Origin: an uncultured Ruminococcus sp.
Lineage (GTDB): Bacteria; Bacillota; Clostridia; Oscillospirales; CAG-272
NCBI GenBank assembly: GCA_900551005.1
Contig: URUL01000001.1
Span: 246 to 64,245 of the forward strand
DNA: 64,000 nt
Reading direction: 5' to 3'
This document shows, one piece after another, positions 10,905 to 61,718 of this stretch. Made by a program: the position numbers and the translations under genes. Each line of letters starts with the position of its first letter. The stretch's first letter is position 1. The notes below the pieces were generated by a model. That model made no database searches. It was not told the origin of the DNA and saw only the letters and a program-made list of their open reading frames with translations.

Positions 10905-13900
10905 ATGTACGAAAAAGTGCCCGCGAATCTGAATTTCGTGGAGAGAGAAAAAAAGATCGAGCAGTTCTGGCGCGATAATAAGATATTCGAAAAGAGTATC
11001 GAGGCGCGCGAGGGCTGTCCGGATTATACATTCTATGACGGACCCCCTACGGCAAACGGAAAGCCGCATATAGGGCACGTTCTCACGCGCGTCATCAAGG
11101 ATATGATTCCCCGCTATCAGACCATGAAGGGGAAAAAGGTTCTGCGCAAGGCAGGCTGGGATACGCACGGACTGCCGGTTGAGCTTGAGGTGGAAAAGTT
11201 GCTCGGGCTCGACGGCAAGGACCAGATAGAAAAATACGGCATAGAGCCCTTCATCAAGAAATGCCGCGAGAGCGTATGGAAATACAAAGGTATGTGGGAG
11301 GATTTCTCCGGCAAAGTGGGCTTCTGGGCCGATATGGAGCATCCCTACATCACCTATACGGATGAATATATCGAATCCGAATGGTGGGCACTTCGTCAGA
11401 TCTGGGACAAAGGTCTGCTCTATAAGGGCTTTAAGATCGTCCCCTATTGTCCCCGCTGCGGTACGCCCCTTTCCAGCGCCGAGGTGGCACAGGGCTAAAA
11501 GGACGTAAAGGCACGCTCCGCCGTCGTCCGTTTCAAGGTCGTCGGAGAGGATGCCTATTTCCTCGCATGGACGACAACGCCGTGGACACTTCCGTCAAAC
11601 GTTGCGCTCTGCGTAAATCCGAATGAGACATACGCCAAGGTAAAGGCGGCAGACGGCTGCACATATTACATGGCAAAAGCTCTGCTTGACACGGTTCTCG
11701 GCAAGCTCGGCCAAGAAGGCTCTCCCGCCTATGAGATTCTCGCGGAATACAGCGGCAGGGAGCTTGAATACAGGGAATACGAACCGCTCTTTGACTTTGC
11801 ACTCGATATCATAGCAAAGCAGGGCAAAAAGGCATACTTCGTCACATGCGACACTTATGTAACTCTCACCGACGGTACCGGTATCGTTCATATCGCTCCC
11901 GCCTTCGGTGAAGATGACGCGAGAGTCGGTAAAGAATATGATCTTCCCTTCGTTCAGCTTGTGGACGGCAAGGGAGAGATGACGAAGGAGACCTCCTATG
12001 CGGGCTTATTCGTCAAGAAAGCCGACCCGCTCGTTCTCAAAGATCTCGAAAAGAAGGGGCTGCTCTTTGACGCGCCGAAGTTTGAGCACAGCTATCCGCA
12101 CTGCTGGAGATGCGATACTCCGCTTATCTACTATGCGAGAGAATCATGGTATATCCGTGAAAGCGCCGTCAAGGAGGATCTGCTCCGCAATAACGCCACG
12201 ATCAACTGGATACCCGAATCCATAGGCACGGGCAGATTCGGAAACTGGCTGGAAAACATTCAGGACTGGGCTATCTCGCGTAACCGCTACTGGGGCGCAC
12301 CACTCAATATATGGGAATGCGATTGCGGTCACCGTCACTGCGTCGGCAGCCGTGAAGAGCTATATGAGATGAGCGGTGACGAACGCGCAAAGACAGTTGA
12401 GCTGCACCGCCCGTATATCGACGGAATAACGATCAAATGTCCGAAATGCGGCAAGCCGATGAAGCGCGTACCCGAGGTTCTCGACTGCTGGTTTGACTCG
12501 GGAGCGATGCCCTTCGCGCAGTATCACTATCCTTTTGAAAACAAGGAGCTCTTCCTGAGCCACTTCCCCGCTCAGTTCATTTCCGAAGCGGTGGACCAAA
12601 CCCGCGGCTGGTTCCATTCTCTTCTCGCCGTTTCGACGCTCGTTTTCAATAAAGCGCCTTATGAAAACGTCATCGTTCTCGGACATGTTCAGGATGAAAA
12701 CGGTCAGAAGATGTCAAAATCCAAGGGCAATGCAGTGGATCCCTTCGATGCGCTTGCAAAGCACGGTGCCGATGCCATACGCTGGTATTTCTATTCCAAC
12801 AGCGCTCCGTGGCTCCCGAATAAATTCCATGACGCGGCTGTTACCGAGGGTCAGCGCAAATTCATGGGCACGCTTTGGAATACCTATGCTTTCTTTGTCC
12901 TCTATGCAAATATCGACGATTTCGATGCGACGAAGTATACGCTTGATTATGACAAGCTTTCCGTCATGGACAAATGGGTGCTCTCAAAGCTGAATTCGCT
13001 CATACAAGAAGTTGACGGCGACCTCGAAAATTACCGCATAACGGAAACGGCGCGCGCCCTCTCGGATTTTGCGGATCAGCTCTCGAATTGGTACGTCCGC
13101 CGCTCGCGTGAGCGCTTCTGGGTAAGCGATATGACCGAGGACAAAATAAACGCCTATATGACGCTTTACACGGTCCTCGTAACATTCTGCAAGCTCGCCG
13201 CTCCGATGATTCCGTTCATGACGGAGGATATATATCAGAATCTCGTCCGCAGTATAGACAAGACCGCGCCCGAGAGCATCCATCTCTGCGATTTTCCCGT
13301 GGCAAATGAAGCATATATCGACTCCGAGCTGGAAGAGAGAATGGATGAGGTACTCGACATCGTCGTTCTCGGCAGAGCATGCAGAAACAGCGCCTCCATC
13401 AAAAACCGCCAGCCGATAGGTGCCATGTATGTCAAGGCGGAAAAGGAGCTTCCCGAATATTTCGTCTGCGTGATCGCAGATGAGCTCAATGTCAAGAAGG
13501 TCGAATTTGTTTCCGACGCGGCCTCCTTCACAAGCTATTCGTTCAAGCCCCAGCTTCGCACGGTAGGTCCGAGATACGGCAAATATCTCGGCAAAATCAG
13601 AACAATGCTCGCGGAGATAGACGGAAATGCCGCCATGAATGAGCTTAAACAAACGGGCAAGCTGAAGCTTGATCTCGGAGATACGACTGCCGAGCTGTCC
13701 GAAGACGACCTGCTTATAGAATCCGCTCAGATACCGGGCTTTGAGGCTCTCTCGGATAACAATGTTACCGTCGCTCTCGATACGAATCTCACGCCGGAGC
13801 TGATAGAAGAAGGCTTTGTACGCGAGATAGTAAGCAAGATCCAGACCATGCGCAAAGATTCCGGTTTTGAGGTAATGGATAATATCAATATCTATTGCTC

Positions 13901-14063
13901 CGGCAATGAGAAGATAGCCGGAATCATCGAGCGCAATGCGGACTTCATAAAGAGCGAGACGCTTGCAAAGGATATCGTATTCGGAAGCGAAACACATTTT
14001 TCAAAGAACTGGAATATCAACGGCGAAGATGTGATCCTCGGCGTTGAAAAAATAAATAAATAG
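10905..14063 (+). pseudogene. ileS: Isoleucine--tRNA ligase (type 2), single reading frame interrupted by an in-frame TAA at 11496-11498
   Basis: ORFs 10905..11498 and 11670..14063 are in the same frame, and the intervening 11499-11669 is open and homologous (KDVKARSAVVRFKVVGEDAYFLAWTTTPWTLPSNVALCVNPNETYAKV). It has the HIGH motif (PHIGH) and KMSKS (GQKMSKSKGN). The stop replaces the residue in the conserved ...EVAQG-Y-KDV... context. As written the gene is broken, but a sequencing error is possible. Confidence 0.9.
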
Positions 14064-14089
14064 ATAAATAACTTCAGGAGTGAAAGATC

Positions 14090-14626
14090 ATGGGAAAGAA
14101 CAAATCTACTTTTTGGGCAGACTTCAAAAAGTTCATCACACGCGGCAATGTACTCGATATGGCTGTCGGCGTTGTAGTCGGCGGTGCTTTCGGCAAGATA
14201 ACGACAGGTCTTGTAAATTACATTATCAATCCTTTCGTCGGTCTTTTTCTGAAAAGCGGCAGTCTTGACGGCGTCAAGACCGTCATCACACCGGCGGTAG
14301 TAAACGCAGAGGGTGTTGTCACGACGCCTGAGGTTGCCATTCTCTGGGGTGCATGGTTTCAGACGATAATTGATTTTCTGATCATCGCGCTCTGCATCTT
14401 TACCGTGCTTCGCGTCATCATGAGAGTCAAAAATACGCTCAATGAAAAAGAGATAAAAGCCGCCGAAGAGAAAGCCGCAAAGGAAAAGGCAGACGCCGAA
14501 GCGGCGAAAGCGGCGGCAGAAGCTGCAGCGGCGCAGAAGGAAGCCGAAGAGCAGAAGCTGAAAGCCGATGTCGCACGTCAGGCGGAGCTTCTCGAAAGAC
14601 TTTGTGAAATAATGGAAAAGAAGTAA
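14090..14626 (+). CDS. mscL: Large-conductance mechanosensitive channel MscL with a long Ala/Glu/Lys-rich C-terminal extension
   Basis: The N-terminus FKKFITRGNVLDMAVGVVVGGAFGKITTGLVNYIINP is the MscL signature. A second TM segment follows, then a ~60-aa AEEKAAKEKADAEAAKAAAEAAAAQKEAEEQKLK tail. Confidence 0.9.
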   Translation: MGKNKSTFWADFKKFITRGNVLDMAVGVVVGGAFGKITTGLVNYIINPFVGLFLKSGSLDGVKTVITPAVVNAEGVVTTPEVAILWGAWFQTIIDFLIIALCIFTVLRVIMRVKNTLNEKEIKAAEEKAAKEKADAEAAKAAAEAAAAQKEAEEQKLKADVARQAELLERLCEIMEKK

Positions 14627-14656
14627 ATATTTCCTGAAAAAACAGGCATTCGAAAA

Positions 14657-14682
14657 AGCGTCTTTGCAAAAAGGCGCTTTTT
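14657..14682 (+). terminator. Rho-independent terminator after mscL
   Basis: AGCGTCTTT-GCAA-AAAGGCGCT hairpin followed by TTTTT. Confidence 0.6.
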
Positions 14683-14818
14683 ATCTGCTTTTTAGCCAAA
14701 AACAGCCGTTGAAATTTGTCATATATACTATTGATTTTACGACTGATATAATGTATAATTAGATAAAATATTGTCATAAAGAGCAATATTTTTGCGAAAA
14801 GAAAAGGGGGAAATCTTT

Positions 14819-16429
14819 ATGAAAAAAGCACTGTCTCTCTTCCTTGCGGCAGCGATGCTGGTACTTGTACTGCTTCTTGCCGCATGCGGAGGACAACCGG
14901 AAACAACGACAACAATAACAACAAGCACAAATTCTACAGAAACCACCTCTTCCTTCGACGGCACGACTGCCTCTAAGGAAGATACAGGCACATCCGGCGG
15001 CACAACAGCGACCTCAACGTCAGCTTCCGGAACAACTGCATCCGGCGGCTCTGCAGAGCTGACCGGTAAGGAAAAGCATCCCGACTTCATGGATGTAAAC
15101 TTCGGAGGAAAGACCTTCAACTTTGTTACGCAAAAAGGCTGGAGCGGCGGCTGGGACACATATGAGATATGCGCGGAAGCCACCGGACAAGACGATCTTA
15201 TCACGGAAGCCGTAATAAGCAGAAATTCCGTAGTTGAAGACCTCTACAACTGCAAGATAAGCGAAACCAAAAGCGATGACCCTCTGAACCTTGTGAACAA
15301 CGATATTGCTCTCGGTACCAATAATTACGATTTTGTCATGAGACTCGTTTATATTGTCCCTTCCTCATGCATGAATATCGCAAATCTTGATATAGATCTC
15401 AGCCACAGCTGGTGGAATCAGGATTATATCGATGCCTTCAGCTTCGATTACAACGGCAAAAAGGTACTTCACTCGATTTCGGGCAAATTCAATCTCATTA
15501 TGTACGATTCAATAAACACGCTCTTCGTGGATATGGACGTATATGACCGCGCCATTGCTTCCGGCAAGACAAATATCGACCTTTATCAGACCGTCAAGGA
15601 CGGAAAATGGACAGTTGAAAAAATGCTTGAGCTCATGGATGCGGCGAAAGTCGATGTAAACGGCGACTCTCAGCTGAATTTTGATGACGGCGATATCTTC
15701 GGATTCCTTGCACATAAAAATTCCCACTCCGAATCTGCATTCTTCTATTCAACGGGAATCAAGACCGTTATGAAGGATGACAACAACCAGTATGTCAGCA
15801 TCAATGCTTCCAATACCGACATGGCTTATGTAAGCAAGGTTATAGATGAAGCAGCCAAAGTATATCAAAGCCCTGGTTTCGGCTCTATAGGTGAGCTCAA
15901 CAGCGTAAAGGCACTGGCAAACGGTCAGTCGCTCTTCAGCGCGCAGTGGATGATAAGACTTCATTCCAACCACGAATTTGTAAACTACGGCATAGATTTC
16001 AGCGAAAAGCGCATCTCTGTCGTTCCCTATCCGAAATTTGATGAGAATCAGGAGGATTATCATTCCTACATCTTCAGCCGCGGCTATGGACTTCAGGTTT
16101 CCAAGGCTATCACCGACCATGCGGCGGCAGCTCAGTTCCTCGAGGTATTCGGTTATCACTCCGAAAAGCTTCTCTACCCCGAATATATCAAGTGCATCAA
16201 GACCCAGTGCCTCTGCGATGAAGGCGCGGGCGAAATGCTTGAGATTGTTCTCCAATCCGCCTTTGTTGATTACGGTCACTACAATCCAGATGTCGGCATA
16301 ATGGGACGCATAAGCAGCATGATTTCAAGCGGCAAAAACAATATCTCCAAGGCTATCTCCTCCGCAAGTCAGGCGGCAGATGGTGTTCTTGCCACATATA
16401 TGCAGGATTCCTACGATAGGATGAACTGA
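14819..16429 (+). CDS. Lipoprotein, extracellular solute-binding-protein-like (paralog 1 of 3)
   Basis: Signal peptide plus lipobox MKKALSLFLAAAMLVLVLLLAAC-GG, a Thr/Ser-rich linker, then a ~430-aa domain. Its pattern (FGGKTFNF..W..YEI.AEATG.D.ITEA...RNSVVE.LYNCKI ... DLYQTVKDGKWT) resembles the large family-1-type ABC substrate-binding lipoproteins of Clostridia. Start set at the ATG at 14819 after GGGGGA. Confidence 0.85.
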   Translation: MKKALSLFLAAAMLVLVLLLAACGGQPETTTTITTSTNSTETTSSFDGTTASKEDTGTSGGTTATSTSASGTTASGGSAELTGKEKHPDFMDVNFGGKTFNFVTQKGWSGGWDTYEICAEATGQDDLITEAVISRNSVVEDLYNCKISETKSDDPLNLVNNDIALGTNNYDFVMRLVYIVPSSCMNIANLDIDLSHSWWNQDYIDAFSFDYNGKKVLHSISGKFNLIMYDSINTLFVDMDVYDRAIASGKTNIDLYQTVKDGKWTVEKMLELMDAAKVDVNGDSQLNFDDGDIFGFLAHKNSHSESAFFYSTGIKTVMKDDNNQYVSINASNTDMAYVSKVIDEAAKVYQSPGFGSIGELNSVKALANGQSLFSAQWMIRLHSNHEFVNYGIDFSEKRISVVPYPKFDENQEDYHSYIFSRGYGLQVSKAITDHAAAAQFLEVFGYHSEKLLYPEYIKCIKTQCLCDEGAGEMLEIVLQSAFVDYGHYNPDVGIMGRISSMISSGKNNISKAISSASQAADGVLATYMQDSYDRMN

Positions 16430-16518
16430 TTTTTTCTAATCACGCCCCCACAAACATCCGAAAATATTTTGATTTTTTCAAAGTATTTAAATATATATTA
16501 TAAAAGGGAGAAACCACT

Positions 16519-18129
16519 ATGAAAAAAGCGCTGTCTCTCTTCCTTGCGGTAGCGATGCTGGTACTTGTACTGCTTCTTGCCGCATGCGGAGGACAACCGG
16601 AAACAACGACAACAATAACAACAAGCACAAATTCTACAGAAACCACCTCTTCCTTCGACGGCACGACTGCCTCTAAGGAAGATACAGGCACATCCGGCGG
16701 CACAACAGCGACCTCAACGTCAGCTTCCGGAACAACTGCATCCGGCGGCTCTGCAGAGCTGACCGGTAAGGAAAAGCATCCCGACTTCATGGATGTAAAC
16801 TTCGGAGGAAAGACCTTCAACTTTGCCGTCTCCAAAGGTTGGAGCGGCGGCTGGGACTGCTATGAGATCTATGCCGAAGCCACAGGCAATGATAACCTGA
16901 TAACAGAAGCGATCGTAAACCGAAATTCTGTTGTCGAGAGCCTTTACAATTGCAAGATAAGAGATACAAAGACGGACAATCCCGCCGGTCTTATCAGCAA
17001 CGATATTGCTCTCGGTACCAATAACTACGATTTTCTCATGCAGCTTTGGTACAACGTATTGGATGGCATGATGAATATAGCAAACCTCGATATAGATACT
17101 TCCCACAGCTGGTGGAATCAGGACTATATAGAGGCGATGAGCTTCAACTATAACGGTACCAAGATGATCCATTCCCTCTCCGGCAAATTCAACCTCATCA
17201 TGTACGATTCGATCGTATCGCTCTTCGTCGATATGGACTTATATGACCGTTTGGTAGCCGCAGGCAAAACGAATATCGACCTTTATCAGACCGTCAAGGA
17301 CGGCAAATGGACGATCGATACCATGATCACGCTCATGGAACTCGCCACGACCGATACAAACGGCGACCAGCAGATCACCTTCGAGGGCGGAGACATTTTC
17401 GGCTATGCCGCTCATCCGAACATACTGGCACAGTATGGCTTCATTTACGGTGCAGGTATTAAAACCGTCACGAAAGACGAAAGCGGTGCCTATATATGCA
17501 TGAGCCCTGCGACTACCGATGTAACTTTCATCAGCAATGTCATCGATAAAGCTGCGTCCATATATAAGAGCTCCGGCTACAGCAACATAGGCGAGCTGAA
17601 CAGCGTAAAGGCCATAGCAAACGGTCAGTCGCTCTTCAATGTTCAGTGGATGATAAGACTCCATTCGACAGAGGAACTGATAAACTATGGCGTGGACTTC
17701 GGAGAAAAGCGTATCTCCGTTCTGCCCTTCCCGAAATACGAGGAGTCGCAGGAAGACTATGGCACCTTCATCTCGAACAGAGGCTACGGTCTGCGCGTAT
17801 CCAAATCCATAAAGGATCCGAAGGCTATTTCCCAGTTCCTCGAGGTATTCGGCTATCATTCCGAGATGCTTCTCTACCCCGAATATATCAAGTGCATTAA
17901 GACGCAGTGCCTCTGCGATGAAGGCGCGGGCGAGATGCTCGAGATCGTTTTGGATTCCGTCTGCTGTGACTTCGGCATATGGAATGCAAGCACGGGAATC
18001 ATCAACCGAATGGGCGAAATGGTAGTAAGCGGCAAAAACAATTTCTCGAAAGCCCTCGCTTCCGTATCAAAATCAGGTCAGAATATTCTCGATGAAACAA
18101 TGAAGAATACATACGAGAAAATGAACTGA
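16519..18129 (+). CDS. Lipoprotein, extracellular solute-binding-protein-like (paralog 2 of 3)
   Basis: Same architecture as paralog 1. The first ~307 nt are nearly identical to paralog 1 and the remainder is diverged. Confidence 0.85.
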   Translation: MKKALSLFLAVAMLVLVLLLAACGGQPETTTTITTSTNSTETTSSFDGTTASKEDTGTSGGTTATSTSASGTTASGGSAELTGKEKHPDFMDVNFGGKTFNFAVSKGWSGGWDCYEIYAEATGNDNLITEAIVNRNSVVESLYNCKIRDTKTDNPAGLISNDIALGTNNYDFLMQLWYNVLDGMMNIANLDIDTSHSWWNQDYIEAMSFNYNGTKMIHSLSGKFNLIMYDSIVSLFVDMDLYDRLVAAGKTNIDLYQTVKDGKWTIDTMITLMELATTDTNGDQQITFEGGDIFGYAAHPNILAQYGFIYGAGIKTVTKDESGAYICMSPATTDVTFISNVIDKAASIYKSSGYSNIGELNSVKAIANGQSLFNVQWMIRLHSTEELINYGVDFGEKRISVLPFPKYEESQEDYGTFISNRGYGLRVSKSIKDPKAISQFLEVFGYHSEMLLYPEYIKCIKTQCLCDEGAGEMLEIVLDSVCCDFGIWNASTGIINRMGEMVVSGKNNFSKALASVSKSGQNILDETMKNTYEKMN

Positions 18130-18233
18130 CGACGGTCAAAAACGAATTTTTCTCTTCACACCCCCACCCAAAAATCGGAATTATTTTGATCTTTCAAAAT
18201 ATTCAAATATTGCATATGTGAAAGGAAAAAAAC

Positions 18234-19859
18234 ATGAAAAAAGTATTGTCTTTTCTCCTCGCGGTAACGATGCTGGCAGTAACTCTGCTGCTTGCCGCCT
18301 GCGGAGGAGAAAATAAACCCGAAATCACCACGACAACCAGTTCAAAAACCACAGAAGCCACATCATCTGCGACAACGGAAAAGCAGGATGTGACAACGAC
18401 CGACTCCGGCAGTACGACTGCCTCGACACAAGCGACCGATACTTCCGAGACGAGCATCACAAGCAGCTCTTCTCAGACAACCGTCCTTACAGGCAAGGAA
18501 AAGCACCCCGACTTCATGGATGTAAACTTCGGCGGAAAGACATTTAACTTTGTCGTTTCCAAGGGTTGGAGCGGCGGTTGGGATTGCTATGAGATCTATG
18601 CCGAAGCCACAGGCAACGACGATATCATCACAGAGGCGATCATCAACCGAAACTCTGTTGTGGAAAGCCTCTATAACTGCAAGATCAGACATACACAAGC
18701 AGAATATCCCCATCAGCTTGTTGCCAATGATGTTGCACTCGGAACGTCTACCTACGATTTTCATATGCAGCTTTTCTATACCTCTTCAGCCAACGGCATT
18801 AATATAGCAAGCCTTGATATAGACCTTTCGCACAGCTGGTGGAATCAGGAATATATCAATGCGTTCGGTTATACATATAATGGCACGAAGATTCTACCTT
18901 CCATCTCGGGTAAATTTAACCTCATCATGTATGACTCCATCGCGACTATGTTTGCCGATATGGATGTTTACGATCGTGCGGTAGCCTCCGGCAAAACAAA
19001 TATCGACCTCTATCAGACCGTCAAGGACGGCAAATGGACGATCGATACCATGATCGCTCTGATGGAAGCGGCAAAAGTCGATGTAAACGGCGACCAGCAA
19101 CTCAAATTTGAAGACGGAGATATCTTCGGCTTCCTTTCGAACGCAAATGTACTCCCTCAGTACGGCTTCATTTATGGTTCCGGGCTCAAATCCGTCATCA
19201 AAAATGAAAACGACGCTTTCGAAAGCCTGAATACGACCAATACGGACATTTCTTATGTAAGCAGTGTTATCGATAAGGCAGCAACGGTATTCAAGAGCTC
19301 TGCTTACGGTCAGATAGGTGAGCTGAACAGCGTAAAGGCTGTGGCAAACGGTCAGGCGCTCTTTAATGTTCAATGGATCATCAGATTACATTCAAAAGAA
19401 GAGCTCATCAATTACGGTATCGACTTCAGCGAAAAGCGTCTCTCCGTTATCCCCTTCCCGAAATACAGTGAGGATCAGGAAGAATACGGTACCTTTATCT
19501 GCAACCGCGGCTACGGACTCATTGTTCCCAAGACGATAACCGATGCCAAGGCTATTTCTCAGTTCCTCGAGGTATTCGGATATCATTCCGAAATGCTCCT
19601 CTATCCCGAATATATCAAGTGCATCAAGACACAGTGCCTCTGCGATGAGGAAGCAGGCGAGATGCTCGAGATAGTGCTCAAATCCGCACGCTGTGACTAC
19701 GGTGTCTGGAATTTAAATACAGGTCTCGCCGGCAGAATGGGTGAAATGATAGCAAGCGGAAAGAACAACTTCTCCAAAGCTGTCGCTTCCGCATCCAAGA
19801 CTTGCCAGCAGGTTCTTGATTCGGTAATGAAGGATATTTACGATCGATCTGTCAACTGA
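18234..19859 (+). CDS. Lipoprotein, extracellular solute-binding-protein-like (paralog 3 of 3)
   Basis: Lipobox LLLAAC-GG, a different Thr/Ser linker, and a mature domain closest to paralog 2. Confidence 0.85.
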   Translation: MKKVLSFLLAVTMLAVTLLLAACGGENKPEITTTTSSKTTEATSSATTEKQDVTTTDSGSTTASTQATDTSETSITSSSSQTTVLTGKEKHPDFMDVNFGGKTFNFVVSKGWSGGWDCYEIYAEATGNDDIITEAIINRNSVVESLYNCKIRHTQAEYPHQLVANDVALGTSTYDFHMQLFYTSSANGINIASLDIDLSHSWWNQEYINAFGYTYNGTKILPSISGKFNLIMYDSIATMFADMDVYDRAVASGKTNIDLYQTVKDGKWTIDTMIALMEAAKVDVNGDQQLKFEDGDIFGFLSNANVLPQYGFIYGSGLKSVIKNENDAFESLNTTNTDISYVSSVIDKAATVFKSSAYGQIGELNSVKAVANGQALFNVQWIIRLHSKEELINYGIDFSEKRLSVIPFPKYSEDQEEYGTFICNRGYGLIVPKTITDAKAISQFLEVFGYHSEMLLYPEYIKCIKTQCLCDEEAGEMLEIVLKSARCDYGVWNLNTGLAGRMGEMIASGKNNFSKAVASASKTCQQVLDSVMKDIYDRSVN

Positions 19860-26189: not shown

Positions 26190-27263
26190 TTACATATTAT
26201 CGGCAAAAATATCGCGAAGTATTTCATCCCGGCATGATTCAACAGCAGAAAAATCGATATTTTCTCCGTATATCGCCTCAAGCGCCGCATGCGCACGATA
26301 AACGCCCGCGAGATTTTCCTCTGCCGCCTGCATCAGGCAGTCATAGCATCTTCCCGAAAATTTCAGCTTGCGACGCATGGCGGAAAGCTTTCCTTTGTCC
26401 GCAAATCTGAGAACATTTATATTCTTCTCGCTGAGCTTCAGCTTTTCCTCATCGCGGCATATGCAGAAAAGCGTATCCGCTTCCTTTATGTATACTGCCT
26501 CGAGCCTGTCATGGCGAAGCGGAGAGGGGCATTTTATGAGAGCGATGCCCAGACTCTCACAAAGCTCGCAGAAGGTCGTGAGAAAATATCCTCCGAGCCC
26601 GTACTTATCGGAAACGGTATATACCGTCCCCGCCGCTTTTTCCAGTGTTTGCAGATGGACCGCGCCGGACGTGCCGATGGCATCGACATATCGCTCCTCT
26701 GTTCTTCCCGCCTTTCCCGAGGGAAGCTTCATCGCGCGGAGCAGACGGCGTTGTGCTCCTGCCGCTTTCTCAGCGCAGTAAGCCGCCCGCGCGCTTTCCT
26801 CCATCTCGCGGTGCACCTTGCCCGCCGCCGAGAGAAAACGGTATGCCGTGCGGTAAAGCTCGGCATTTTCCGTAGCGAGAGCGATGATCTCATCACGGCG
26901 GCTGCGGAGCGCACAAACGTCAAAAGCGCCGTACAGACTGACTATGACCTCACTTGCTCACGGGTATTTCGGGTCTGTCATATGCGGTGCCGTCCCGTCT
27001 ATCACGGCACACGAAAGCTCCGGTATCACCACACCGTCAAGAGATGCGGTATCCGAAGAGCAATAATAAAGCTCGGCGGAATATCCCCTTCCCTTCGCAT
27101 ACGAGGCTATCTGCTTCATAAGAGTCGATTTTCCGGTACCCGGTCCCCCTTTTATGATGAATATTTTTTCGAGCGAGAGTGGAGAGAAAACGCTTTCGAA
27201 TATGCTGTAAAAACCGTTTTCCGTATTTGCCGCCGCAAAAAATTCAAGTGCTTCGGACTTCAT
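26190..27263 (-). pseudogene. Uncharacterised P-loop NTPase, single frame interrupted by an in-frame TGA at 26958-26960
   Basis: ORFs 26958..27263 and 26190..26816 are in the same frame. The segment between them is open (ASEVIVSLYGAFDVCALRSRRDEIIALATENAELYRTAYRFLSAAGKVHRE). It has Walker A GGPGTGKST. The context of the stop is ...HMTDPKYP-*-ASEVIV. Confidence 0.75.
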
Positions 27264-32567: not shown

Positions 32568-32606
32568 ATCGGACTGCAATATATTCTGAAAGGACAAGGT
32601 TCAATA

Positions 32607-33110
32607 ATGGACAATAAAAAAGAAAAAGCTCGTTTTGGCTTTGTAGATGCGGTGATCATCATACTCATACTTTCCGTGGCGGCGGCAATAACGTATCTCA
32701 TCCTGCTGCAAAACGGCAATATAAAAACCGCAAATGAGCCGAAAACCGTGGAATACTCCGTCAAGATATCCTCCGTGAAGGAGGAGCATCTTGATGCCCT
32801 CTCCCTCGGAAGCGAGGTATTCAATCCCTCGACGGGAACATACCTCGGCTATATCTCGAATATACAATCGGAGCAAGCAAGATATTTCAAAAATACACCT
32901 GATGAAAACGGGAATATCCCCGTATACACTTACAGTGATATCTATGACGTTTACATTACGGTGATATGCGACGACGCTCAGATTGATGAAACCGGCTTCT
33001 GCAATATAGGAAGCACGAGAATACTCGTGGGCTCGCAGATCTATTTTTCTTCGGGATATCTGAACCGCGTAGGATACTGTACGCGCTTTGAGATAAAGAA
33101 CAACGGTTAA
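32607..33110 (+). CDS. N-terminally anchored membrane protein, DUF4330-like (paralog A)
   Basis: 167 aa. The KARFGFVDAVIIILILSVAAAITYLIL anchor is followed by a beta-rich domain. The DUF4330 assignment is from memory of the (R/K)F..(I/V)D.(I/V)I.L pattern. Confidence 0.7.
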   Translation: MDNKKEKARFGFVDAVIIILILSVAAAITYLILLQNGNIKTANEPKTVEYSVKISSVKEEHLDALSLGSEVFNPSTGTYLGYISNIQSEQARYFKNTPDENGNIPVYTYSDIYDVYITVICDDAQIDETGFCNIGSTRILVGSQIYFSSGYLNRVGYCTRFEIKNNG

Positions 33111-33129
33111 AGGAGAGGAGGAACGCAAC

Positions 33130-33624
33130 GTGAATGATCGCAAAACCAAGGTAAGATTCAACGTCTTTGATGTGATCATATGTCTTGCCGCCATAGCATG
33201 TATCGCTGCCGTCATACTCAAGGTCACCTACTTTGATAAGCGTGCGGAAGCAAGCGAACAGATAACGGTGAATTTCACCGTATATGACATCATGGATAAT
33301 ACGGCAAAAAGCGCAAGCAAGGGAAATGTATACCTCGCATCAGATGACACTCTCATAGGCGAGATTCTCTCCGCCGAGGTGGAACCCAATAAAATATACG
33401 TGGAGAACGAGGGAATGGCAACCGAAGCGGACAATCCCCTTGGCAAGAAGAATCTGCGCGGAAAGATAAAATTCACCGGCGTTTCTTCGGAAACCGGATT
33501 TTTCGTCGACGGCAAAACGAAAATTTCCGTCGGCTCTACCCTCTCGGTCTATATACTGAATCCGATGACAGGTGACGGCGCGGCTGTGGAGATCACCATC
33601 GACTCCATAGAAGCAAACGCCTGA
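33130..33624 (+). CDS. N-terminally anchored membrane protein, DUF4330-like (paralog B)
   Basis: 164 aa. GTG start after AGGAGAGGAGG. It has a KVRFNVFDVIICLAAIACIAAVIL anchor and the same architecture as the preceding gene. Confidence 0.7.
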   Translation: MNDRKTKVRFNVFDVIICLAAIACIAAVILKVTYFDKRAEASEQITVNFTVYDIMDNTAKSASKGNVYLASDDTLIGEILSAEVEPNKIYVENEGMATEADNPLGKKNLRGKIKFTGVSSETGFFVDGKTKISVGSTLSVYILNPMTGDGAAVEITIDSIEANA

Positions 33625-33681
33625 TACAGAAACAAAATTGCAAATTTTATTATTTTCGACAAGAAAATTTGCTCAAAACTA

Positions 33682-33710
33682 TTGATTTTATGCAAAAAAT
33701 TTGATATAAT
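33682..33710 (+). promoter_or_regulatory. Sigma-70-type promoter for ptsH
   Basis: TTGATT (33682-33687), a 17-nt spacer, then TATAAT (33705-33710). Confidence 0.5.
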
Positions 33711-33775
33711 ATCAGATAATCCAAGGAATTGATTCCATATTTTCTCATATTCCCTATAAAACACAGGAGCAGCAC

Positions 33776-34033
33776 ATGATATCAAGAGAAGTAGTCGTAA
33801 AAAGTAGCGTGGGTCTTCATGCAAGACCTGCAATGTTTTTCATTCAGAAAGCAAATTCGTATAAAAGCTCTATATGGATCCAGGACGGAGACAAGCGTTC
33901 CAGCGCCAAAAGTCTTTTGGGTGTGCTCGCCATGGCTATTTCCGGAGACGCCACGATAACTCTTATCGCCGACGGTCCCGATGAAGCAGAAGCGCTCGAC
34001 GGTCTGGAGGAGATACTCCGCACGACCGAGTGA
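33776..34033 (+). CDS. ptsH: Phosphocarrier protein HPr
   Basis: 85 aa with the active-site His in VGLHARPA and the regulatory Ser in SAKSLLGVL. Confidence 0.9.
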   Translation: MISREVVVKSSVGLHARPAMFFIQKANSYKSSIWIQDGDKRSSAKSLLGVLAMAISGDATITLIADGPDEAEALDGLEEILRTTE

Positions 34034-34227
34034 GCCGAAGCGACAATGCAATAAATGAGGCGGTAGAAGGCTCGCAAGGGACCATCTGCCGTTTTTTTAT
34101 CGATAGTTCACCTATATAAAAGAAAGCATTTTTCCGAAAGGAGGAATATACCACGGTACGCGCCGAATATGCAAAAAGACTGCGGGAAAAAGCCGGAAAT
34201 CTGCCGCTTTGTCCCGGCGTATATATC

Positions 34228-35997
34228 ATGAAAAATTCCTCCGGCAAGGTCATATACGTCGGCAAGAGCCGTGCGCTCAAAAACAGAGTCTCGCAATATT
34301 TTCATGAAAATGACTTCAAAAACAGCAAGACAGATGCGATGACTTACCATGTCTACGACTTCGACTATATCATCTGTGAAACGGAAATAGAAGCACTCAC
34401 GCTGGAAAACAGCCTGATAAAGCTCTATCGCCCGAGATATAATATTCTCCTGAAAGATGACAAATCCTATCCGTATCTGGTGGCGACGCTCGGGGAAGAA
34501 TATCCGCGGCTCATCATGTCGCGCAAGCGCGAAGCGGGCAAGAACAGATATTACGGTCCGTATTCGGGCGCGGGGACGGTTTATTCCGTCATTTCGGCGC
34601 TCGGAAAGACCTTCGGACTTCCCTCCTGTGAGAAGCATTTTCCGCGTGATAAGGGCAAGGTCAAGCATTGTCTCTATCGTCGCATGGGATGTATCGCCCC
34701 GTGCGATGAAAATATAACGGCTGAAGAATACCGTGCCCGCTTTCTCGAGGCGATATCCTTCCTCGACGGCAAGGAGGACGATATCATCTCCGCCCTTACC
34801 GAAAAAATGAACTACGCCGCGGAGAACCTGATGTTTGAGGCAGCGGCGGGCTATCGCGACAGAATAAACGCAGTAAAACGCCTGAGCGAAAAACAGCGTG
34901 TCATCTGCTCTCCCGATATCGACCGCGACATCATCGGCTGGTATGCCGGCGAGGATATATGCTCCATATGCGTTTTCTATGTGCGCTCGGGAAAGCTGAT
35001 AGATTCGCAGAGCTTTCTCTTCTCCGGAGGAGAAATATTCGACGATGCCGCGATATGCTCTTTTATCTATGAGCTGTATAATACGCGCGACTATATCCCG
35101 CGCGAGATAACGCTTGCCGATGAAATTTCGGAGGAGGAGCGGCAGACAGCCGAGGAATGGCTCCGCAAAAGATCAGGCTCGGCAGTCAGGCTGAGAATCT
35201 CCCGCCGCGGAGAGCTTCATAAATTCTGCCTGACAGTGAAGCAGAATGCGCAGACGCGCGCCAACGAATACAGAAGAAGCAGTGAACAGACAGAAAAATC
35301 GCTCGCACGCCTTGCCTCTCTCTGCGCGCTCGAGGTCCTGCCCGAGCGGATAGAGGCTTTTGACATATCAAACTACGGAAACGAAAACATCACCGCGGGC
35401 ATGGTCGTTTTTGAAAATGCCAAGCCGAAGAAAAGCGACTACAGGCTCTATAAAATACGGTCTACCGAGGGGCAGGACGACTACGGCGCCATGCGGGAAG
35501 CGGTCTCGCGCAGGCTGGCGCACATTTCGGATGAAGGCGCAAAAGTGCCCGATCTCATTCTGCTCGACGGCGGTAAAAATCACGTTTTGGTGATACAGGC
35601 ACTCATGCATGAGCTCGGTATAAAAATTCCCGTGCTCGGCATGGTAAAGGACGACCATCACAAGACGCGTGCACTCGTCAGCGAATATGGCGAGGTCTCC
35701 ATTGCCGCCGAACAGGCGGTTTTCATGCTGATCTATAAGATTCAGGAGGAGGTCCACCGCTTCACCGTCTCAAGCATGACAAGAGCAAAGCGAAAAAAAG
35801 AAACGACCTCTCTTCTCGAGAAGATAGACGGCATCGGTTCGGCGAAGGCGAAGGCACTGCTCACGCACTTCGGAGGACTCGCGGGCGTAAAGAAAGCAAG
35901 TGCCGACGATCTCGCTTCCGTCAAGGGTATAACCCCCGTATTAGCGGAAAGGATCATCGGATATTTCGAAAAAAGCAACGAAAGGAAAAACAAATGA
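34228..35997 (+). CDS. uvrC: Excinuclease ABC subunit C (coordinates from the first ATG; the homologous frame extends upstream to 34120)
   Basis: It has GIY-YIG (..PGVYIM..GKVIYVGKS..LKNRVSQYF), a UVR domain, the RNase H-like endonuclease domain and a C-terminal (HhH)2 (IDGIGSAKAKALLTHFG). The GVY part of GIY-YIG lies upstream of the first ATG, in frame, with no ATG, GTG or TTG available (see findings). Confidence 0.88.
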   Translation: MKNSSGKVIYVGKSRALKNRVSQYFHENDFKNSKTDAMTYHVYDFDYIICETEIEALTLENSLIKLYRPRYNILLKDDKSYPYLVATLGEEYPRLIMSRKREAGKNRYYGPYSGAGTVYSVISALGKTFGLPSCEKHFPRDKGKVKHCLYRRMGCIAPCDENITAEEYRARFLEAISFLDGKEDDIISALTEKMNYAAENLMFEAAAGYRDRINAVKRLSEKQRVICSPDIDRDIIGWYAGEDICSICVFYVRSGKLIDSQSFLFSGGEIFDDAAICSFIYELYNTRDYIPREITLADEISEEERQTAEEWLRKRSGSAVRLRISRRGELHKFCLTVKQNAQTRANEYRRSSEQTEKSLARLASLCALEVLPERIEAFDISNYGNENITAGMVVFENAKPKKSDYRLYKIRSTEGQDDYGAMREAVSRRLAHISDEGAKVPDLILLDGGKNHVLVIQALMHELGIKIPVLGMVKDDHHKTRALVSEYGEVSIAAEQAVFMLIYKIQEEVHRFTVSSMTRAKRKKETTSLLEKIDGIGSAKAKALLTHFGGLAGVKKASADDLASVKGITPVLAERIIGYFEKSNERKNK

Positions 35998-55611: not shown

Positions 55612-55768
55612 CTTTTTCGCGTTAAAAAAGCTGTTTTTTGGAATTTTATACTTCTGTATTAAATAAAAATCAGCACAAATCGGTATATAAAAATTCTATA
55701 TTTTGCCGATTTTTATTTTTATTTTCAAAAACTATTGACAAATTCGGAAGTCTCGCACCCTTATCGGT

Positions 55769-56776: not shown

Positions 56777-56834
56777 AAAAATGTCCTTTCTGAAAGGATT
56801 TTCAGTTTTATACGAAAGTATAAATTTGCCTTTT

Positions 56835-57293: not shown

Positions 57294-57708
57294 TTAAAAG
57301 CAACTCCGTTATTCCCGCTTTTATGGCATCGTAGCATTGCTCCATCGTCCCCTCACTCATGAAAAGCGGCATATTTATCTCTCCGAGAGAGGTGACCTTG
57401 CAGACAAACTCGGGATACTCTTCCCTGATCGCTCTCGCATAATCCTCACGCATAGCTATTACGATATCAGCTTCCTCCATGAGAGGGCGCGTAAGCCGAC
57501 GCGAACGTTGAAGCCTGTGCAGATTGCCGGCAAGTCTGCTGGCGAGAATGCGAATGGCATACGGCTCCATAGTCACTCCCGGATAGGCGGTCAGTCCAGC
57601 CGAGGAAGCATCAAATCTGTCCCCCGCCAAGTCCTTCAGTATGTACTCCGCCATAGCGGAGCGGCAGGTATTTGCCACGCAGACAAAGAGAACCTTTTTT
57701 CTGCTCAT
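57280..57708 (-). CDS. Low-molecular-weight protein-tyrosine/arginine phosphatase family protein
   Basis: CX5R(S/T) P-loop: [16 protein letters not shown]. Confidence 0.85.
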
Positions 57709-58559
57709 TCTTCTTCAATATCCTTCACGCGGCAGGGCGTAGCCTCAACTGCATCCGCCACGGGAGCTATGGCATCTCCCTCAAAGAGCTCTATTGCGCC
57801 CTTATCGCAAAGATTTGCGAGTGCAGGGTCGATCGGCATTTTCGCAAGCACGGGTATGCCGTATTCGGCAGCAGCCTCATCGACGCGACTCTCTCCGAAA
57901 ATGTGAAGCTCCTTTCCGCAGTCGGGACATTTCACATAGCTCATATTCTCGACAATGCCGATTATCGGTATATTCATAAGCTGTGCCATGCGAACAGCCT
58001 TACCTACGATCATAGTTACCAGCTCCTGCGGACTCGTCACAATGATGATACCGTCAAGCGGAAGCGACTGAAATACCGTAAGCGGAACATCCCCCGTGCC
58101 GGGAGGGCAGTCCACTACCATATAGTCAAGATCTCCCCAGACCGTCTCCGTCCAGAACTGCTTTACTGTTCCGGCGATGACGGGACCTCTCCAAACGACG
58201 GGAGCGGAAGCATCTTCAAGAAGCAGATTCAGACTGATAACCTCAATGCCCGTTTTGGTGGTCATAGGCATAATTCCGCCGAGAGGTGCCGCCTCGCAGT
58301 TACCCTTCAGACCGAACGCCTTGGGAATGGAGGGACCGGTGATATCCGCATCGAGGATACCTACCGAGAGTTCTCTGCGACGCAGCTCCGTCGCGAGCAG
58401 ACTGCTTATCATCGATTTGCCTACGCCGCCCTTGCCGGAAACGACGCCGATAAGCTTTCCTACGCGGCTGTATTGATTGAGCGCTTCAAACTGCGGCTTT
58501 CTCGAGCCGCAGGAAGCGGAGCATGTTGAACAATCATGTGTACATTCTGACATTTTCAT
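57705..58559 (-). CDS. mrp: Mrp/NBP35/ApbC-family Fe-S cluster carrier ATPase
   Basis: Deviant Walker [12 protein letters not shown], an N-terminal Cys-rich [12 protein letters not shown], the motif DCPPGTGD, and the conserved CxxC (VKCPDCG). Confidence 0.88.
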
Positions 58560-58592
58560 TTTCCTCTTTTCTATTTGGGTTTATTTATCAAA

Positions 58593-60053
58593 TCAAAGTA
58601 TGGTGAAGCCGAAGAAGTCCTTCGTATTATTATAGCATATATCGCAGACCATCTGCGCCAGCCTCTCTATATCCAGAGGATATTCGCCGCGCTCGACGTA
58701 ACCGCCGATGACCGAGCAAAGTATTCTTCTGAAATATTCATGTCGCGTATAGGAAAGGAAGCTGCGCGAATCCGTCAGCATACCGATAAACTTGCCGAAG
58801 GCAGAAAGATTTGCGAGATTTTCCATCTGCGCACGCATTCCGGCAATATTGTCATTGAACCACCATGCGCTTCCGTGCTGCATTTTCGGCATGCACCAGT
58901 CAAAGCCTTCGGATTCCTCGCTCGTATAATTGAAGGTTCCTGCAAGCGTAGCGAGCGCCGCATTGTCCGTCGGATTGAGCGAATAGAGCACGGTCTTGGG
59001 CAGCGCTCCCTCGGTATTGAGCGCGTCGAGCATGGCGGCAAGGTCCGCAATGCAGTTCTTACCATGGATCATATCGTATCCCATGTCGGCGCCGAGTGCT
59101 TTTGTCATGACGCTGTTTGCACGGCGCAGAGTACCGAAATGAATCTGCATTACCCAGCCGTTTTTGACATATTCCTTGCCGAAGAAGCGGATGAGCGCAC
59201 TCTTATAGATAGTTGCCATCTCTTCCCCGACGCTCTCGCCCGCAAGTGCGCGTTTGAGCACGACATCGGCTATGGCAACAGCCTGTCCCGCCGTCTTGGT
59301 GCTGTCGAAGGCAACGTAATTATCAAATCCGTGGTCTGCCGTGCGACAGCCGAGCGCCTTAAAGAGTGCCATTCTCTTGGAGAGAACATCACAGAGCGAT
59401 ACAAAATCCTTTATCTCATCTCCCGCAACCTCGGAAAGGTGCTTTATATAATCTGCGAAATCCGGCGCCGTAATATTCATGCATTTATCAGGGCGGAATG
59501 CGGGGAGCACCTGCGTTTCGAAGCTCGTATCACTGCGCAGTGCTATATGATATTCGAGATTATCCGCAGGGTCGTCAGTCGTGCAGAGCAATTTTACATT
59601 TGATTTTTTTATGATACCTCGTGTGCTCAGAGCAGGATCGCTTTCCAGCTTATCACAGGTAAGGCGCCATACCTCATCGCAGGTGTCCGGTGAGAGCACG
59701 CCGTCATAGCCGAAATAACGCTGAAGCTCGAGATGAGTCCAGTGATAGAGCGGATTGCCGATAAGATTCGGCAGGGCGCTCGCATAGGCGCGAAACTTAT
59801 CATAGTCGGAGGCATCGCCCGTGATAAGACGCTCGGCAATACCGCAGGCGCGCATCGCCCTCCATTTATAGTGGTCGCCGTAAAGCCAAAGCTGAGTAAT
59901 ATTTTCATATCTCTTATCCTCAGCGATCTCCTTCGGACTGACATGGCAATGATAATCGATGATCGGCATCTGCGAAGCATAGTTATGATAGAGCAGCTGT
60001 GCTATGTCTGAATCAAGCAGGAAATTTTCATCCATAAATTCTTTCATTTTCAT
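58593..60053 (-). CDS. uxaC: Glucuronate isomerase
   Basis: FMDENFLLDSDIAQLLYHNYASQMPIIDYHCHVSPKEIAED...LWLYGDHYKWRAMRACG is the canonical UxaC N-terminus. Full length is 486 aa. Confidence 0.93.
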   Translation of the reverse strand: MKMKEFMDENFLLDSDIAQLLYHNYASQMPIIDYHCHVSPKEIAEDKRYENITQLWLYGDHYKWRAMRACGIAERLITGDASDYDKFRAYASALPNLIGNPLYHWTHLELQRYFGYDGVLSPDTCDEVWRLTCDKLESDPALSTRGIIKKSNVKLLCTTDDPADNLEYHIALRSDTSFETQVLPAFRPDKCMNITAPDFADYIKHLSEVAGDEIKDFVSLCDVLSKRMALFKALGCRTADHGFDNYVAFDSTKTAGQAVAIADVVLKRALAGESVGEEMATIYKSALIRFFGKEYVKNGWVMQIHFGTLRRANSVMTKALGADMGYDMIHGKNCIADLAAMLDALNTEGALPKTVLYSLNPTDNAALATLAGTFNYTSEESEGFDWCMPKMQHGSAWWFNDNIAGMRAQMENLANLSAFGKFIGMLTDSRSFLSYTRHEYFRRILCSVIGGYVERGEYPLDIERLAQMVCDICYNNTKDFFGFTIL

Positions 60054-60755
60054 TCTCCTTTATTCTTAAAATAGAAAAATCAGAGCTTTTTATTAAATTA
60101 TACACTATACTTCATTTAATTGCAAGATTTTCTCATATAATTTAATTTAATAAATTTGTTTTTATTTTCCGCAAAAAGCTCCGCTTAAGAGCGTTGACAT
60201 AAGAAAACAGGCAAAAGTTCAGTAAAATCAACGCTTTTAGGGCAGTGGGCAAACAGGTCAGCTCAAAAACCGAATAGCCAAGCGACAAAATGGATGCTGC
60301 CGCAAGGCGGGATCCATTTTCGCATCCCCCGGCGCCGCAGATCTAAAAAGAAGGCTGCGGCGTTTTTTTCGCCCAAATCAAAAAAAGAGGCACAACCGGA
60401 ATGTACTTTACGAACGGTAAAAGCCGCGCATTTGAAATGCTCATGCAGGGCAAGCCCGGATGTGACCGGTACGGGAACGGTTGCACCCCGTTTTCAATGA
60501 TCTCTTGCTCGCAGGAGCAGACCGCGCGGCACTGCGGCAAATACGCTTACATATACAGTTTTGTATCAGGCAAGAGCGCCGTTTTTCTTTCGCCGCGTCT
60601 GAGTCCTCTGCCAAAAGGAGGATATCCCATGCAGTCAGATAGGCATTTTCATATCGTTCTTTAGAAAAGGATTATTTTCTAAATTATTGACAAAACGCAG
60701 TTTGTGTGATATCTTTAGAAATATGAAAGCAATTTCATTCGGAGGATAATTCAAA

Positions 60756-61718
60756 ATGAATGATATCTTAAAAAAAGTAGGGCTTTTCGGCATAGTTCCC
60801 GTAGTTAAAATAGAAAATGCCGATGATGCCGAGCCTCTGGCAAAGGCGCTGATCGCAGGCGGACTTCCTCTCGCGGAAATCACCTTCCGTACAGACGCGG
60901 CGGCAGAATCCATCGCCCGCATAACAAAGGCTTATCCCGATATGCTCGTGGGCGCAGGCACTGTCCTCACGCCCGAGCAGGCAGACAGCGCGGTACAGGC
61001 AGGCGCAAAATTCATCGTCAGCCCCGGCTTCAATCCGAGAATTGTCAAGCATTGCATTGCAAACGGATATCCCGTAGTCCCCGGCTGTTCTACCTGCGGA
61101 GAAATGGAGCAGGCTATGGAGCTCGGTCTTGACGTTGTCAAGTTCTTCCCTGCTGAAGCATCGGGCGGCCTTGCCGTGCTCAAGGCTGTTTCCGCTCCCT
61201 AAGGCAAGCTGAAATTCATGCCCACCGGCGGCATTGAAGCCACAAATATACTCTCGTATCTGAAGTTCCCGAAAATACTCGCATGCGGCGGCAGCTTCAT
61301 GGTAAAGGACGCGCTGATAAAGGCGGGCAGATTTGACGAGATAGAGCGCCTTACACGCGAAGCGGTAGCTCTCATGCACGGTTTCTCCGTGAAGCACATC
61401 GGCATAAATTCCGCAAACGAAGAGACTGCGAGAAAGACGGCAGATATCCTCTGCAAGCTCTTCATGGTCGCTCCGAACGAGGGCAGAAGCTCAATATTCG
61501 CAGGAGCCGAATTTGAGGTAATGAAAACCATGTTCCGCGGCACAAACGGCCATATCGCTATAGCCTGCAACTTCCCCGGCAGAGCGCGCGCCTATCTCGA
61601 GAGCCTCGGTGTCGAATTTGACGAGTCAACGGCGAAGTATGACGACAAGGGCAACCTCACCGTCGTATACTTCAAGAATGAGATAGCGGGCTTTGCTTTC
61701 CATCTTGTCACCAAATAA
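60756..61718 (+). pseudogene. eda: KDPG/KHG aldolase (Eda) fused to a C-terminal VOC/glyoxalase-like domain; frame interrupted by an in-frame TAA at 61200-61202
   Basis: ORFs 60756..61202 and 61218..61718 share one frame. The junction reads ...LKAVSAP-*-GKLKFMPTGGI. Eda blocks: IVPVVKIENADDAEPLAKALIAGGLPLAEITFRT, VGAGTVL, FIVSPG, KFFPAE, PTGG. The last ~113 aa (HIGINSANEE...GHIAIACNFPGRARAYLESLGV...) look like a VOC-fold domain. Confidence 0.8.

Follow-up and report, generated by a model that had tools for sequence, protein, structure and literature searches.

Assembly-private stop codons in three genes and a conserved ACG as the probable start codon of uvrC in a contig from an uncultured Ruminococcus sp.

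The in-frame stop codons found in ileS, a P-loop NTPase gene and an eda-like aldolase gene of the 64,000-nucleotide stretch of DNA analyzed here (the window; assembly GCA_900551005.1, contig URUL01000001.1, positions 246 to 64,245) are, judging from sequence comparison with conspecific contigs, most likely sequencing or assembly errors confined to this assembly. The ACG codon at the head of uvrC is probably a conserved non-AUG start. An earlier note on this DNA had grouped all four sites as point knock-outs of conserved genes; this grouping is wrong, and two different phenomena are involved. As a joint explanation, technical error at the three stops together with an unrelated, conserved initiation codon in uvrC is regarded as very probable. 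A technical origin is favored because the changes are private to the assembly, consist of transversions only, are unfiltered by selection, form clusters on the scale of a read, and carry a signature that recurs in other low-coverage assemblies.

Private substitutions in the window

The window was compared with conspecific pig-gut contigs that were 98.5-99.98% identical to it. In about 57 kb, 17 substitutions were private to the window, each of them private against 2-9 conspecific contigs. The affected genes and sites were as follows.

10905..14063, + strand: ileS (IleRS), frame open from ATG 10905, 1052 codons, interrupted at codon 198
11496..11498, + strand: TAA instead of TAT at Tyr198 of the GYK motif, by a private T>A at 11498
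11512..12323, + strand: four extra ileS transversions, private against nine contigs, namely 11512 A>C (E203A), 11710 Y>G (A/V269G), 11721 A>T (T273S) and 12323 A>T (E473D)
23273, - strand: NFACT-family gene, private T>G (E526A)
26190..27263, - strand: P-loop (STAND-like) NTPase gene, 357-codon frame, interrupted at codon 102
26958..26960, - strand: TGA instead of GGA at Gly102, by a private C>A (plus strand) at 26960
36331, + strand: rsmD-like methyltransferase gene, private T>A (F113Y)
45604: mraY, private T>G (F191V)
46562: ftsW, private T>G (L173R)
49025: ftsQ-like gene, private A>T (N204I)
54164: dnaC-like gene, private T>A (K73N)
57508..57590, - strand: LMW phosphatase gene, three transversions within 83 nt (H67Q, D56A, N40T), private against six contigs
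60756..61718, + strand: eda-like KDPG/KHG aldolase gene, 320 codons, interrupted at codon 149
61200..61202, + strand: TAA instead of TAT at Tyr149, by a private T>A at 61202
61238, + strand: second private T>A in eda (D161E), 36 nt downstream of 61202

In ileS the translation across the stop reads ...AEVAQG*KDV, a conserved motif. T was present at 11498 in 9/9 same-species contigs, and the stop is private to the window assembly. IleRS was intact at 1052 aa in conspecific contigs, with domains tRNA-synt_1, Anticodon_1 and DUF5915, and Tyr at the position of residue 198 is kept in the solved IleRS structures 1ILE and 8C8U. The truncated IleRS fragment had no exact match in the public protein collection, from which it follows that the window's own assembly is missing from that collection.

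The NTPase translation reads ...KYP*ASEV at the stop. GGA was found at this site in 6/6 conspecific contigs, the TGA being private to the window, and L011, L012 and L014-L017 carry the gene unbroken, with 357 aa. Its Pfam matches, nSTAND3 and NPHP3_N, were both weak.

In eda the context of the stop is ...SAP*GKLKFMPTGG. Conspecific eda copies were recovered by way of the upstream 87-aa gene; a scan of metagenome_contigs for the eda site, with N at the variable base, returned 0 matches. The TAA and D161E were both private against six conspecific contigs, in which the stop site was TAT; L024 and L109-L113 have the gene unbroken, with 320 aa. Position 149 was Tyr in 119/120 homologs, and Glu was never seen at position 161. 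The Pfam match (PF01081) covered residues 12-199.

Outside ileS and eda, nine more private missense changes were distributed across seven other genes. Exact copies of the window proteins were absent from the record for the rsmD-like methyltransferase, because of the private F113Y, and for the LMW phosphatase, because of its cluster of three private changes. Among the 54 gene models of the window, internal stops were confined to ileS, the NTPase gene and eda. Other stop junctions that had been flagged mechanically (e.g., 5778, 23074 and 54386), and likewise a minus-strand frame across 32601-33833, were rejected as ordinary gene boundaries or non-coding frames because gene calls in conspecific contigs give separate or plus-strand genes there.

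The earlier note was correct in placing TAA at 11496, TGA at 26958 (minus strand) and TAA at 61200, and in deriving them from TAY and GGA codons, the relatives reading TAT, GGA and TAT, respectively. Its description of genes with one disabling difference in otherwise pristine frames does not hold for ileS, with four more private missense changes, or for eda, with one more. Scaffold_103 of sample S111 differed from the window across 6631-63328 by the 17 private substitutions and one transition, with 0 indels. The transition, the sole extra difference, is common to other strains.

All 17 private changes were transversions (T>A, 5; A>T, 4; T>G, 5-6; A>C, 1; C>A, 1), and 15-16 of them affected A:T pairs (A:T>T:A, 9; A:T>C:G, 6-7). 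By comparison, shared natural polymorphisms comprised 248 transitions vs 119 transversions, all natural variants stood at 501:220, and distinct strains gave transition:transversion counts of, for example, 26:3 and 27:3. The ratio of 0:17 departs from the natural spectrum with P = 5e-9 and from uniform substitution with P = 1e-3.

Every private change altered the protein (3 nonsense, 14 missense, 0 synonymous), and the changes fell on invariant residues such as ileS Tyr198 and eda Tyr149; among natural variants relative to the window, synonymous changes numbered 397 and missense changes 190, with no nonsense change. Random errors of the same spectrum would be expected to yield 2.3 synonymous and 2.3 intergenic changes vs 0 observed (P = 0.005), and at least three nonsense changes with P = 0.04. 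The non-synonymous excess (17/17) counts against a plain random-error reading. Five gaps between neighboring changes were no longer than 50 nt (11, 14, 34, 36 and 48 nt), vs 0.24 expected (P = 2e-6).

Other assemblies carried the same signature. In near-identical contigs the singletons were all transversions (L004, 4/4; L011, 3/3; L026, 4/4; L027, 2/2), as was the one singleton of the more divergent L006 (98.7%), so that in the pooled set 14/14 private variants were transversions. These 14 split into 11 missense changes, 2 that were synonymous and 1 that was intergenic, the mix expected of random errors. SPAdes coverage was 1.76 for L026 and 1.59 for L027, and three of the L026 singletons lay no more than 16 nt from the contig end. 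Some singletons of sample S113 (L004 and L011) lay near those of the window, 26972 adjoining 26960, and 11658 and 11681 falling within the ileS cluster.

Taken this way, the three stops would be 3 of 17 assembly-specific substitution errors and not biology, and the real organism would have intact ileS, NTPase and eda genes. Likely sources of such errors would be base miscalls or template damage retained at very low depth, or an equivalent corruption of the consensus. A literature search for BioSample SAMN06233224 found no paper.

The ACG codon of uvrC

34153..35997, + strand: uvrC, 614 codons counted from ACG, first ATG at 34228 (codon 26)
34137-34144, + strand: uvrC ribosome-binding site AAAGGAGG, followed by an 8-nt spacer and then ACG at 34153-34155

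As the earlier note had it, uvrC has ACG at 34153. No ATG, GTG or TTG was present in frame after the stop at 34117 and ahead of ATG 34228. The earlier note's reading of the ACG as a point knock-out fails on the occurrence of the same codon elsewhere. The ACG and its Shine-Dalgarno (SD) sequence were identical in 8/8 conspecific contigs, and ACG also occupies this site, with GGAGGG 7 nt upstream, in four sister species (83-90% identical in amino acids). In relatives at 49-64% identity the position of the ACG is taken by ATG or GTG, with a Val codon next. The related species fetched numbered 80 (76 when the ACG group is left aside), and in 73 of the 80 uvrC has a canonical start 10-22 codons ahead of the LPxxPGVY motif.

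The Pfam GIY-YIG match spans uvrC residues 21-97, beginning before the first Met (residue 26). By their pattern of substitution, the codons ahead of the first ATG evolve as coding sequence: over the 25 codons from ACG to ATG, the codon differences were synonymous in 8 cases and non-synonymous in 1 against L029, and in 6 and 3 cases, respectively, against L032. In L032 the upstream frame closes 7 codons before the ACG.

Other candidate starts were considered and rejected. CTG 34180 lacks an SD and is not kept in L032, which reads CTC there, the ATC directly before the ACG is present only in L029 and L031, an ATG in L030 overlaps the SD, and use of ATG 34228 would cost the protein its GIY strand. 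Against a start at the ACG, gene callers place the start of all uvrC homologs at the internal ATG.

Initiation would then take place at the ACG, a weak initiation codon that, standing behind a strong Shine-Dalgarno sequence, would hold UvrC levels low. In E. coli, ACG initiates at ~0.1-1% of the level of AUG and gives an N-terminal Met (bioRxiv 10.1101/063800). It appears reasonably likely that uvrC is natively ACG-initiated in an Acutalibacteraceae clade that takes in the window species together with four or more sister species, among them Ca. Apopatosoma intestinale, where the ACG would have replaced an ancestral ATG, would be kept by selection and would set a very low UvrC level.

Alternative explanations and consequences

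Alteration after assembly, by data corruption or by deliberate in-silico substitution and not by read errors, is given a small chance as the source of the 17 changes. It would accommodate the protein-changing excess over random (P = 0.005), the missing record of the truncated IleRS fragment, and a window otherwise the same as a public assembly. Random in-silico substitution, however, should give about one third transitions and no targeting of A:T pairs (P = 1e-3 and 2e-3), and public contigs carry transversion-only singletons at a similar rate, about 3e-4 per base.

The mutator burst raised in the earlier note would make the 17 changes real and very recent, arising in a sub-lineage whose mutator or error-prone repair phenotype favors transversions, and entering the MAG consensus unpurged. 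The specificity of the transversion spectrum, the lack of filtering by selection (all 17 changes being non-synonymous) and the private transversions also carried by the S113 contigs L004 and L011, from the same BioSample, would suit it. It is nonetheless a poor fit, and improbable. Replication errors are not expected to cluster as these changes do, with neighbors no more than 50 nt apart (P = 2e-6), and the codon-198 stop in the single-copy, essential ileS would kill. The signature is also present in unrelated ~1.6-1.8x assemblies and at contig ends, and A:T>T:A is mixed with A:T>C:G in place of one characteristic class. Mutation of mutT gives A:T>C:G and that of mutY gives G:C>T:A; we know of no single mutator yielding A:T>T:A together with A:T>C:G. 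Finally, uvrC is undamaged, its ACG is old and clade-conserved, and the argument from an affected uvrC to a mutator therefore fails. A diversity-generating retroelement (DGR) was discarded as a cause of hypermutation in ileS, both A and T being changed with no A>G.

True pseudogenes tolerated through second copies elsewhere in the genome are very improbable, and such redundancy is not required to account for the stops: the genes are intact at the same locus in all same-species contigs, frameshifts and deletions are absent, and the lesions belong to a wider spread of private transversions, with mraY, ftsW and other genes also affected. Readthrough of the stops, whether through a suppressor tRNA, code reassignment or a programmed mechanism, with the genes functional as written, draws on the replacement of a Tyr codon by TAA at 2/3 stops and is scarcely credible, given ordinary TAT and GGA at these sites in same-species contigs, normal window genes of expected length ending in TGA (29), TAA (22) and TAG (3), a scan of the window alone that gave only Trp-CCA and Met-CAT tRNAs, and the 14 private missense changes that accompany the stops. 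The earlier note's judgment that a reassigned code is unlikely is thereby upheld, and its suggestion of nonsense suppression is set aside on the same evidence. Its suggestion of base-calling or consensus error stands for the three stops, which are private, clustered and part of a transversion-only set, and falls for uvrC, where the ACG is conserved.

If technical error is accepted for the 17 changes, every 10 kb of a reference-type MAG contains some 3 substitution errors left uncorrected, which would appear as false pseudogenes in essential genes and as false private protein variants. Pseudogene counts, inference of mutators and proposals of recoding from such assemblies would mislead. A cheap test is available in the comparison of the transition/transversion ratio and synonymous fraction of assembly-private variants with those of the natural polymorphism of the species. 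The conserved uvrC ACG, if truly a start, would add a codon beyond the translation table 11 set to the native bacterial starts, and the GIY motif would be systematically trimmed off these UvrC proteins by gene callers.

Comparison with known systems

The private changes resemble errors of low-coverage short-read and MAG assemblies in being private singletons, in a transversion bias with many T>G changes, in clustering within a read length, and in a signature that recurs near contig ends and in more than one independent assembly of low coverage. They differ from the textbook Illumina miscall in that over half are A<->T; T>G and A>C are classic Illumina miscalls and A<->T is not (PMC8002175, PMC13218037). 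In the literature on artefacts, T>G and A>C were found documented, and no clear dye-based signature was found. In-frame TAA and TGA at conserved sense positions in the window recall genetic codes 4/25 or suppressor tRNAs; unlike in reassignment or suppression, relatives are without the stops and the same codons end normal genes.

Non-canonical bacterial starts include the AUU of infC and pcnB, and E. coli uvrC starts with GUG. Translation table 11 does not list ACG among its start codons, and no native bacterial ACG start is known to us. The uvrC of the window is like infC, pcnB and E. coli uvrC in having a near-cognate of AUG behind a strong SD at optimal spacing, in the conservation of that start across species, and in a product needed at low copy number. 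It is unlike them in that the codon is ACG, which is not in the table 11 set.

Conspecific contigs and the interrupted genes

Thirty-four same-species contigs, identical to the window at 98.5-99.98%, were gathered by exact-protein look-ups using neighbouring genes; their sources were gut metagenomes, those of pigs among them, and one NCBI MAG. Positions at which the window differed from every covering contig were listed as private on window coordinates, which served as the common frame, over the range 6631-63850. The earlier note had read four genes as each carrying one disabling point change in an otherwise pristine frame, and its coordinates for all four sequence features were correct when the sequence was re-read:

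10905-14063, ileS, frame opening at ATG 10905, with a sole break at TAA 11496-98 within ...AEVAQG*KDV
26958-60, minus strand, TGA in a P-loop NTPase gene of 357 codons
61200-02, TAA in an eda-like aldolase gene of 320 codons
34153, ACG in the frame of uvrC, 8 nt after AAAGGAGG

In a mechanical scan, and across 54 gene models, the window showed no internal stops besides those in ileS, the NTPase gene and eda. The conspecific contigs, with no exception seen, encode undamaged proteins: an IleRS of 1052 aa, an NTPase of 357 aa and an aldolase of 320 aa. At the three stop sites they carry T (9 contigs), C (6) and T (6), so that the codons read TAT, GGA and TAT. IleRS Tyr198 is part of a GYK motif conserved in solved structures, and of 120 aldolase homologs 119 have Tyr at position 149. 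Beyond its aldolase Pfam domain (residues 12-199), eda has a C-terminal extension of ~120 aa (codons 200-320, 61353-61718) with no Pfam match, and the length (320-321 aa) is kept in 120 homologs.

Private substitutions and their origin

Exactly 17 window-private positions were found between 6631 and 63850. Further private changes fall in both ileS and eda, so their frames are not otherwise pristine.

Private substitutions in the window and their protein effects, by gene
ileS: 11498 T>A, 11512 A>C, 11710 Y>G, 11721 A>T, 12323 A>T; Y198*, E203A, A/V269G, T273S, E473D
NFACT-family gene: 23273 T>G; E526A
P-loop NTPase gene: 26960 C>A; G102*
rsmD-like gene: 36331 T>A; F113Y
mraY: 45604 T>G; F191V
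ftsW: 46562 T>G; L173R
ftsQ-like gene: 49025 A>T; N204I
dnaC-like gene: 54164 T>A; K73N
LMW phosphatase gene: 57508 A>T, 57542 T>G, 57590 T>G; H67Q, D56A, N40T
eda: 61202 T>A, 61238 T>A; Y149*, D161E

Every one of the 17 is a transversion, 15-16 of them at A:T pairs, and every one alters the protein (3 nonsense, 14 missense). Shared polymorphisms in the same alignment comprised 248 transitions vs 119 transversions, and private variants of distinct strains gave transition to transversion counts of 26:3, 27:3 and 16:3; the probability of 17/17 transversions was 5e-9 if drawn from the natural spectrum and 1e-3 if substitution were uniform. Measured against the window, natural variation amounted to 721 variants (397 synonymous, 190 missense, 134 intergenic), none of them nonsense. 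Three or more nonsense changes among the 17 had P = 0.04 if changes of the private spectrum were placed at random. The private sites were also clustered, with gaps of 11, 14, 34, 36 and 48 nt, i.e. five gaps of ≤50 nt vs 0.24 expected (P = 2e-6). Over ~57 kb, scaffold_103 of sample S111 was identical to the window except at the 17 private positions and at one transition shared with other strains, and no indels were present in this alignment.

Transversion-only singletons recurred in other near-identical contigs, namely L004 (4/4) and L011 (3/3), both from sample S113, L026 (4/4) and L027 (2/2), and in the more divergent L006 (98.7% identity; 1/1). SPAdes coverage was 1.76 for L026 and 1.59 for L027, and three L026 singletons lie ≤16 nt from its contig end. 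Some of the S113 private transversions lie within 12-160 nt of those of the window in ileS and the NTPase gene (L011: 26972 beside 26960; L004: 11658 and 11681, both falling in the cluster in ileS), which suggests shared error-prone or low-coverage spots, and the rate of private change, ~3e-4 per base, is alike in the window and the S113 contigs.

The three stops and the rest of the private set are most likely technical error, not evolution, because they are private to one assembly, unfiltered by selection, grouped in read-length clusters, restricted to transversions and of a kind that recurs in low-coverage assemblies. Sequencing or consensus error had been the first of the explanations offered earlier, and for the three stops it is supported by their privacy, spectrum, clustering and recurrence. 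Illumina chemistry is on record as producing T>G and A>C miscalls (PMC8002175; PMC13218037); no platform or mechanism is named here because the A<->T half of the private spectrum matches no textbook miscall. Post-assembly alteration of the record has a small probability: given the spectrum, ~2.3 synonymous and ~2.3 intergenic private changes were expected and 0 were seen (P = 0.005). This absence may be chance; the 14 singletons of other contigs show the expected mix (11 missense, 2 synonymous, 1 intergenic). Whether through read error or post-assembly alteration, the stops would not be biological, and a lineage with a real stop at ileS codon 198 would not be viable.

A mutator burst, also proposed earlier, loses its main support because uvrC is undamaged. 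Recoding or nonsense suppression is very unlikely, since relatives have the sense codons TAT, GGA and TAT at the stop sites and normal genes terminate at TGA (29), TAA (22) and TAG (3), as the earlier note had itself argued against a reassigned code; the tRNAs within the window are Trp-CCA and Met-CAT only. The proposed four-gene knock-out pattern is most probably artefactual in three genes, and uvrC was misread. Part of the residual interest lies in what such stops teach about quality control of MAGs.

Other features of the window

Between 5189 and 6630 the window departs by ~10% (147 differences, with many transitions) from the S111 scaffold that it otherwise matches, upstream of 5186 it does not align to that scaffold, and L004 ends exactly at 6631. 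Positions 1-6630 look like a block that varies between strains, or like a point where the assembly joined co-existing strains. The last ~150 nt (63854-64000) are sharply diverged from four conspecific contigs that match up to 63853, and are another junction, strain-variable or chimeric.

Three tandem paralogous genes (14792-19859; 536-541 aa; DNA identity 77-84%) gave nothing convincing in Pfam, with a weak N-terminal 'New_glue' match, and the first of them is split into 378 + 159 aa in the NCBI MAG (L005). Two adjacent DUF4330 genes (32607-33624; 167 and 164 aa) have a gene for a Wzy_C-family membrane protein on one side and ptsH on the other; a long open minus-strand frame across the same interval was rejected as a gene. 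For dnaX (8515-10269) the longest ORF begins at a GTG and encodes 584 aa, vs 540 aa called in other conspecific contigs, probably a matter of start-site choice only.

The proposed ACG start of uvrC

In uvrC no in-frame ATG, GTG or TTG occurs from the stop at 34117 until ATG 34228, which sits within the ...PGVYIMKN motif. The ACG and its strong Shine-Dalgarno (SD) site are identical in 8/8 conspecific contigs, in all of which the gene calls begin at the internal ATG and yield a product of 589 aa. Scanning species-representative genomes gave 80 related uvrC loci. ACG occupies this position, with GGAGGG 7 nt upstream, in each of the four closest species (83-90% amino-acid identity; among them Ca. 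Apopatosoma intestinale UBA11495 and an Acutalibacteraceae MAG), and relatives at 49-64% identity have ATG there (GTG in two) followed by a Val codon. In 73/80 species the LPxxPGVY motif is preceded, at a distance of 10-22 codons, by a canonical start, the remainder being the ACG clade and a few with longer N-termini.

Against L029, the 25 codons from the ACG to the first ATG differ synonymously at 8 codons and non-synonymously at 1; against L032 the counts are 6 and 3 (both loci of sister species). The L032 frame extends no further than 7 codons upstream of the ACG, and no other near-cognate start codon is plausibly placed. The Pfam GIY-YIG match begins at residue 21, five residues ahead of the first Met, and therefore a start at ATG 34228 would delete the 'GIY' strand. 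Automatic calls cut off the GIY motif (window 34137-34228; ~2980-3080 in the four sister-species loci, L029-L032).

The supposed uvrC lesion is not damage, the ACG being conserved in the 8 conspecific contigs and the four sister species. On sequence grounds, the best reading is that this ACG would be a conserved initiation codon giving low UvrC expression, and it is here that the rest of the residual interest lies; in E. coli, ACG initiates at ~0.1-1% of AUG, with an N-terminal Met (bioRxiv 10.1101/063800).
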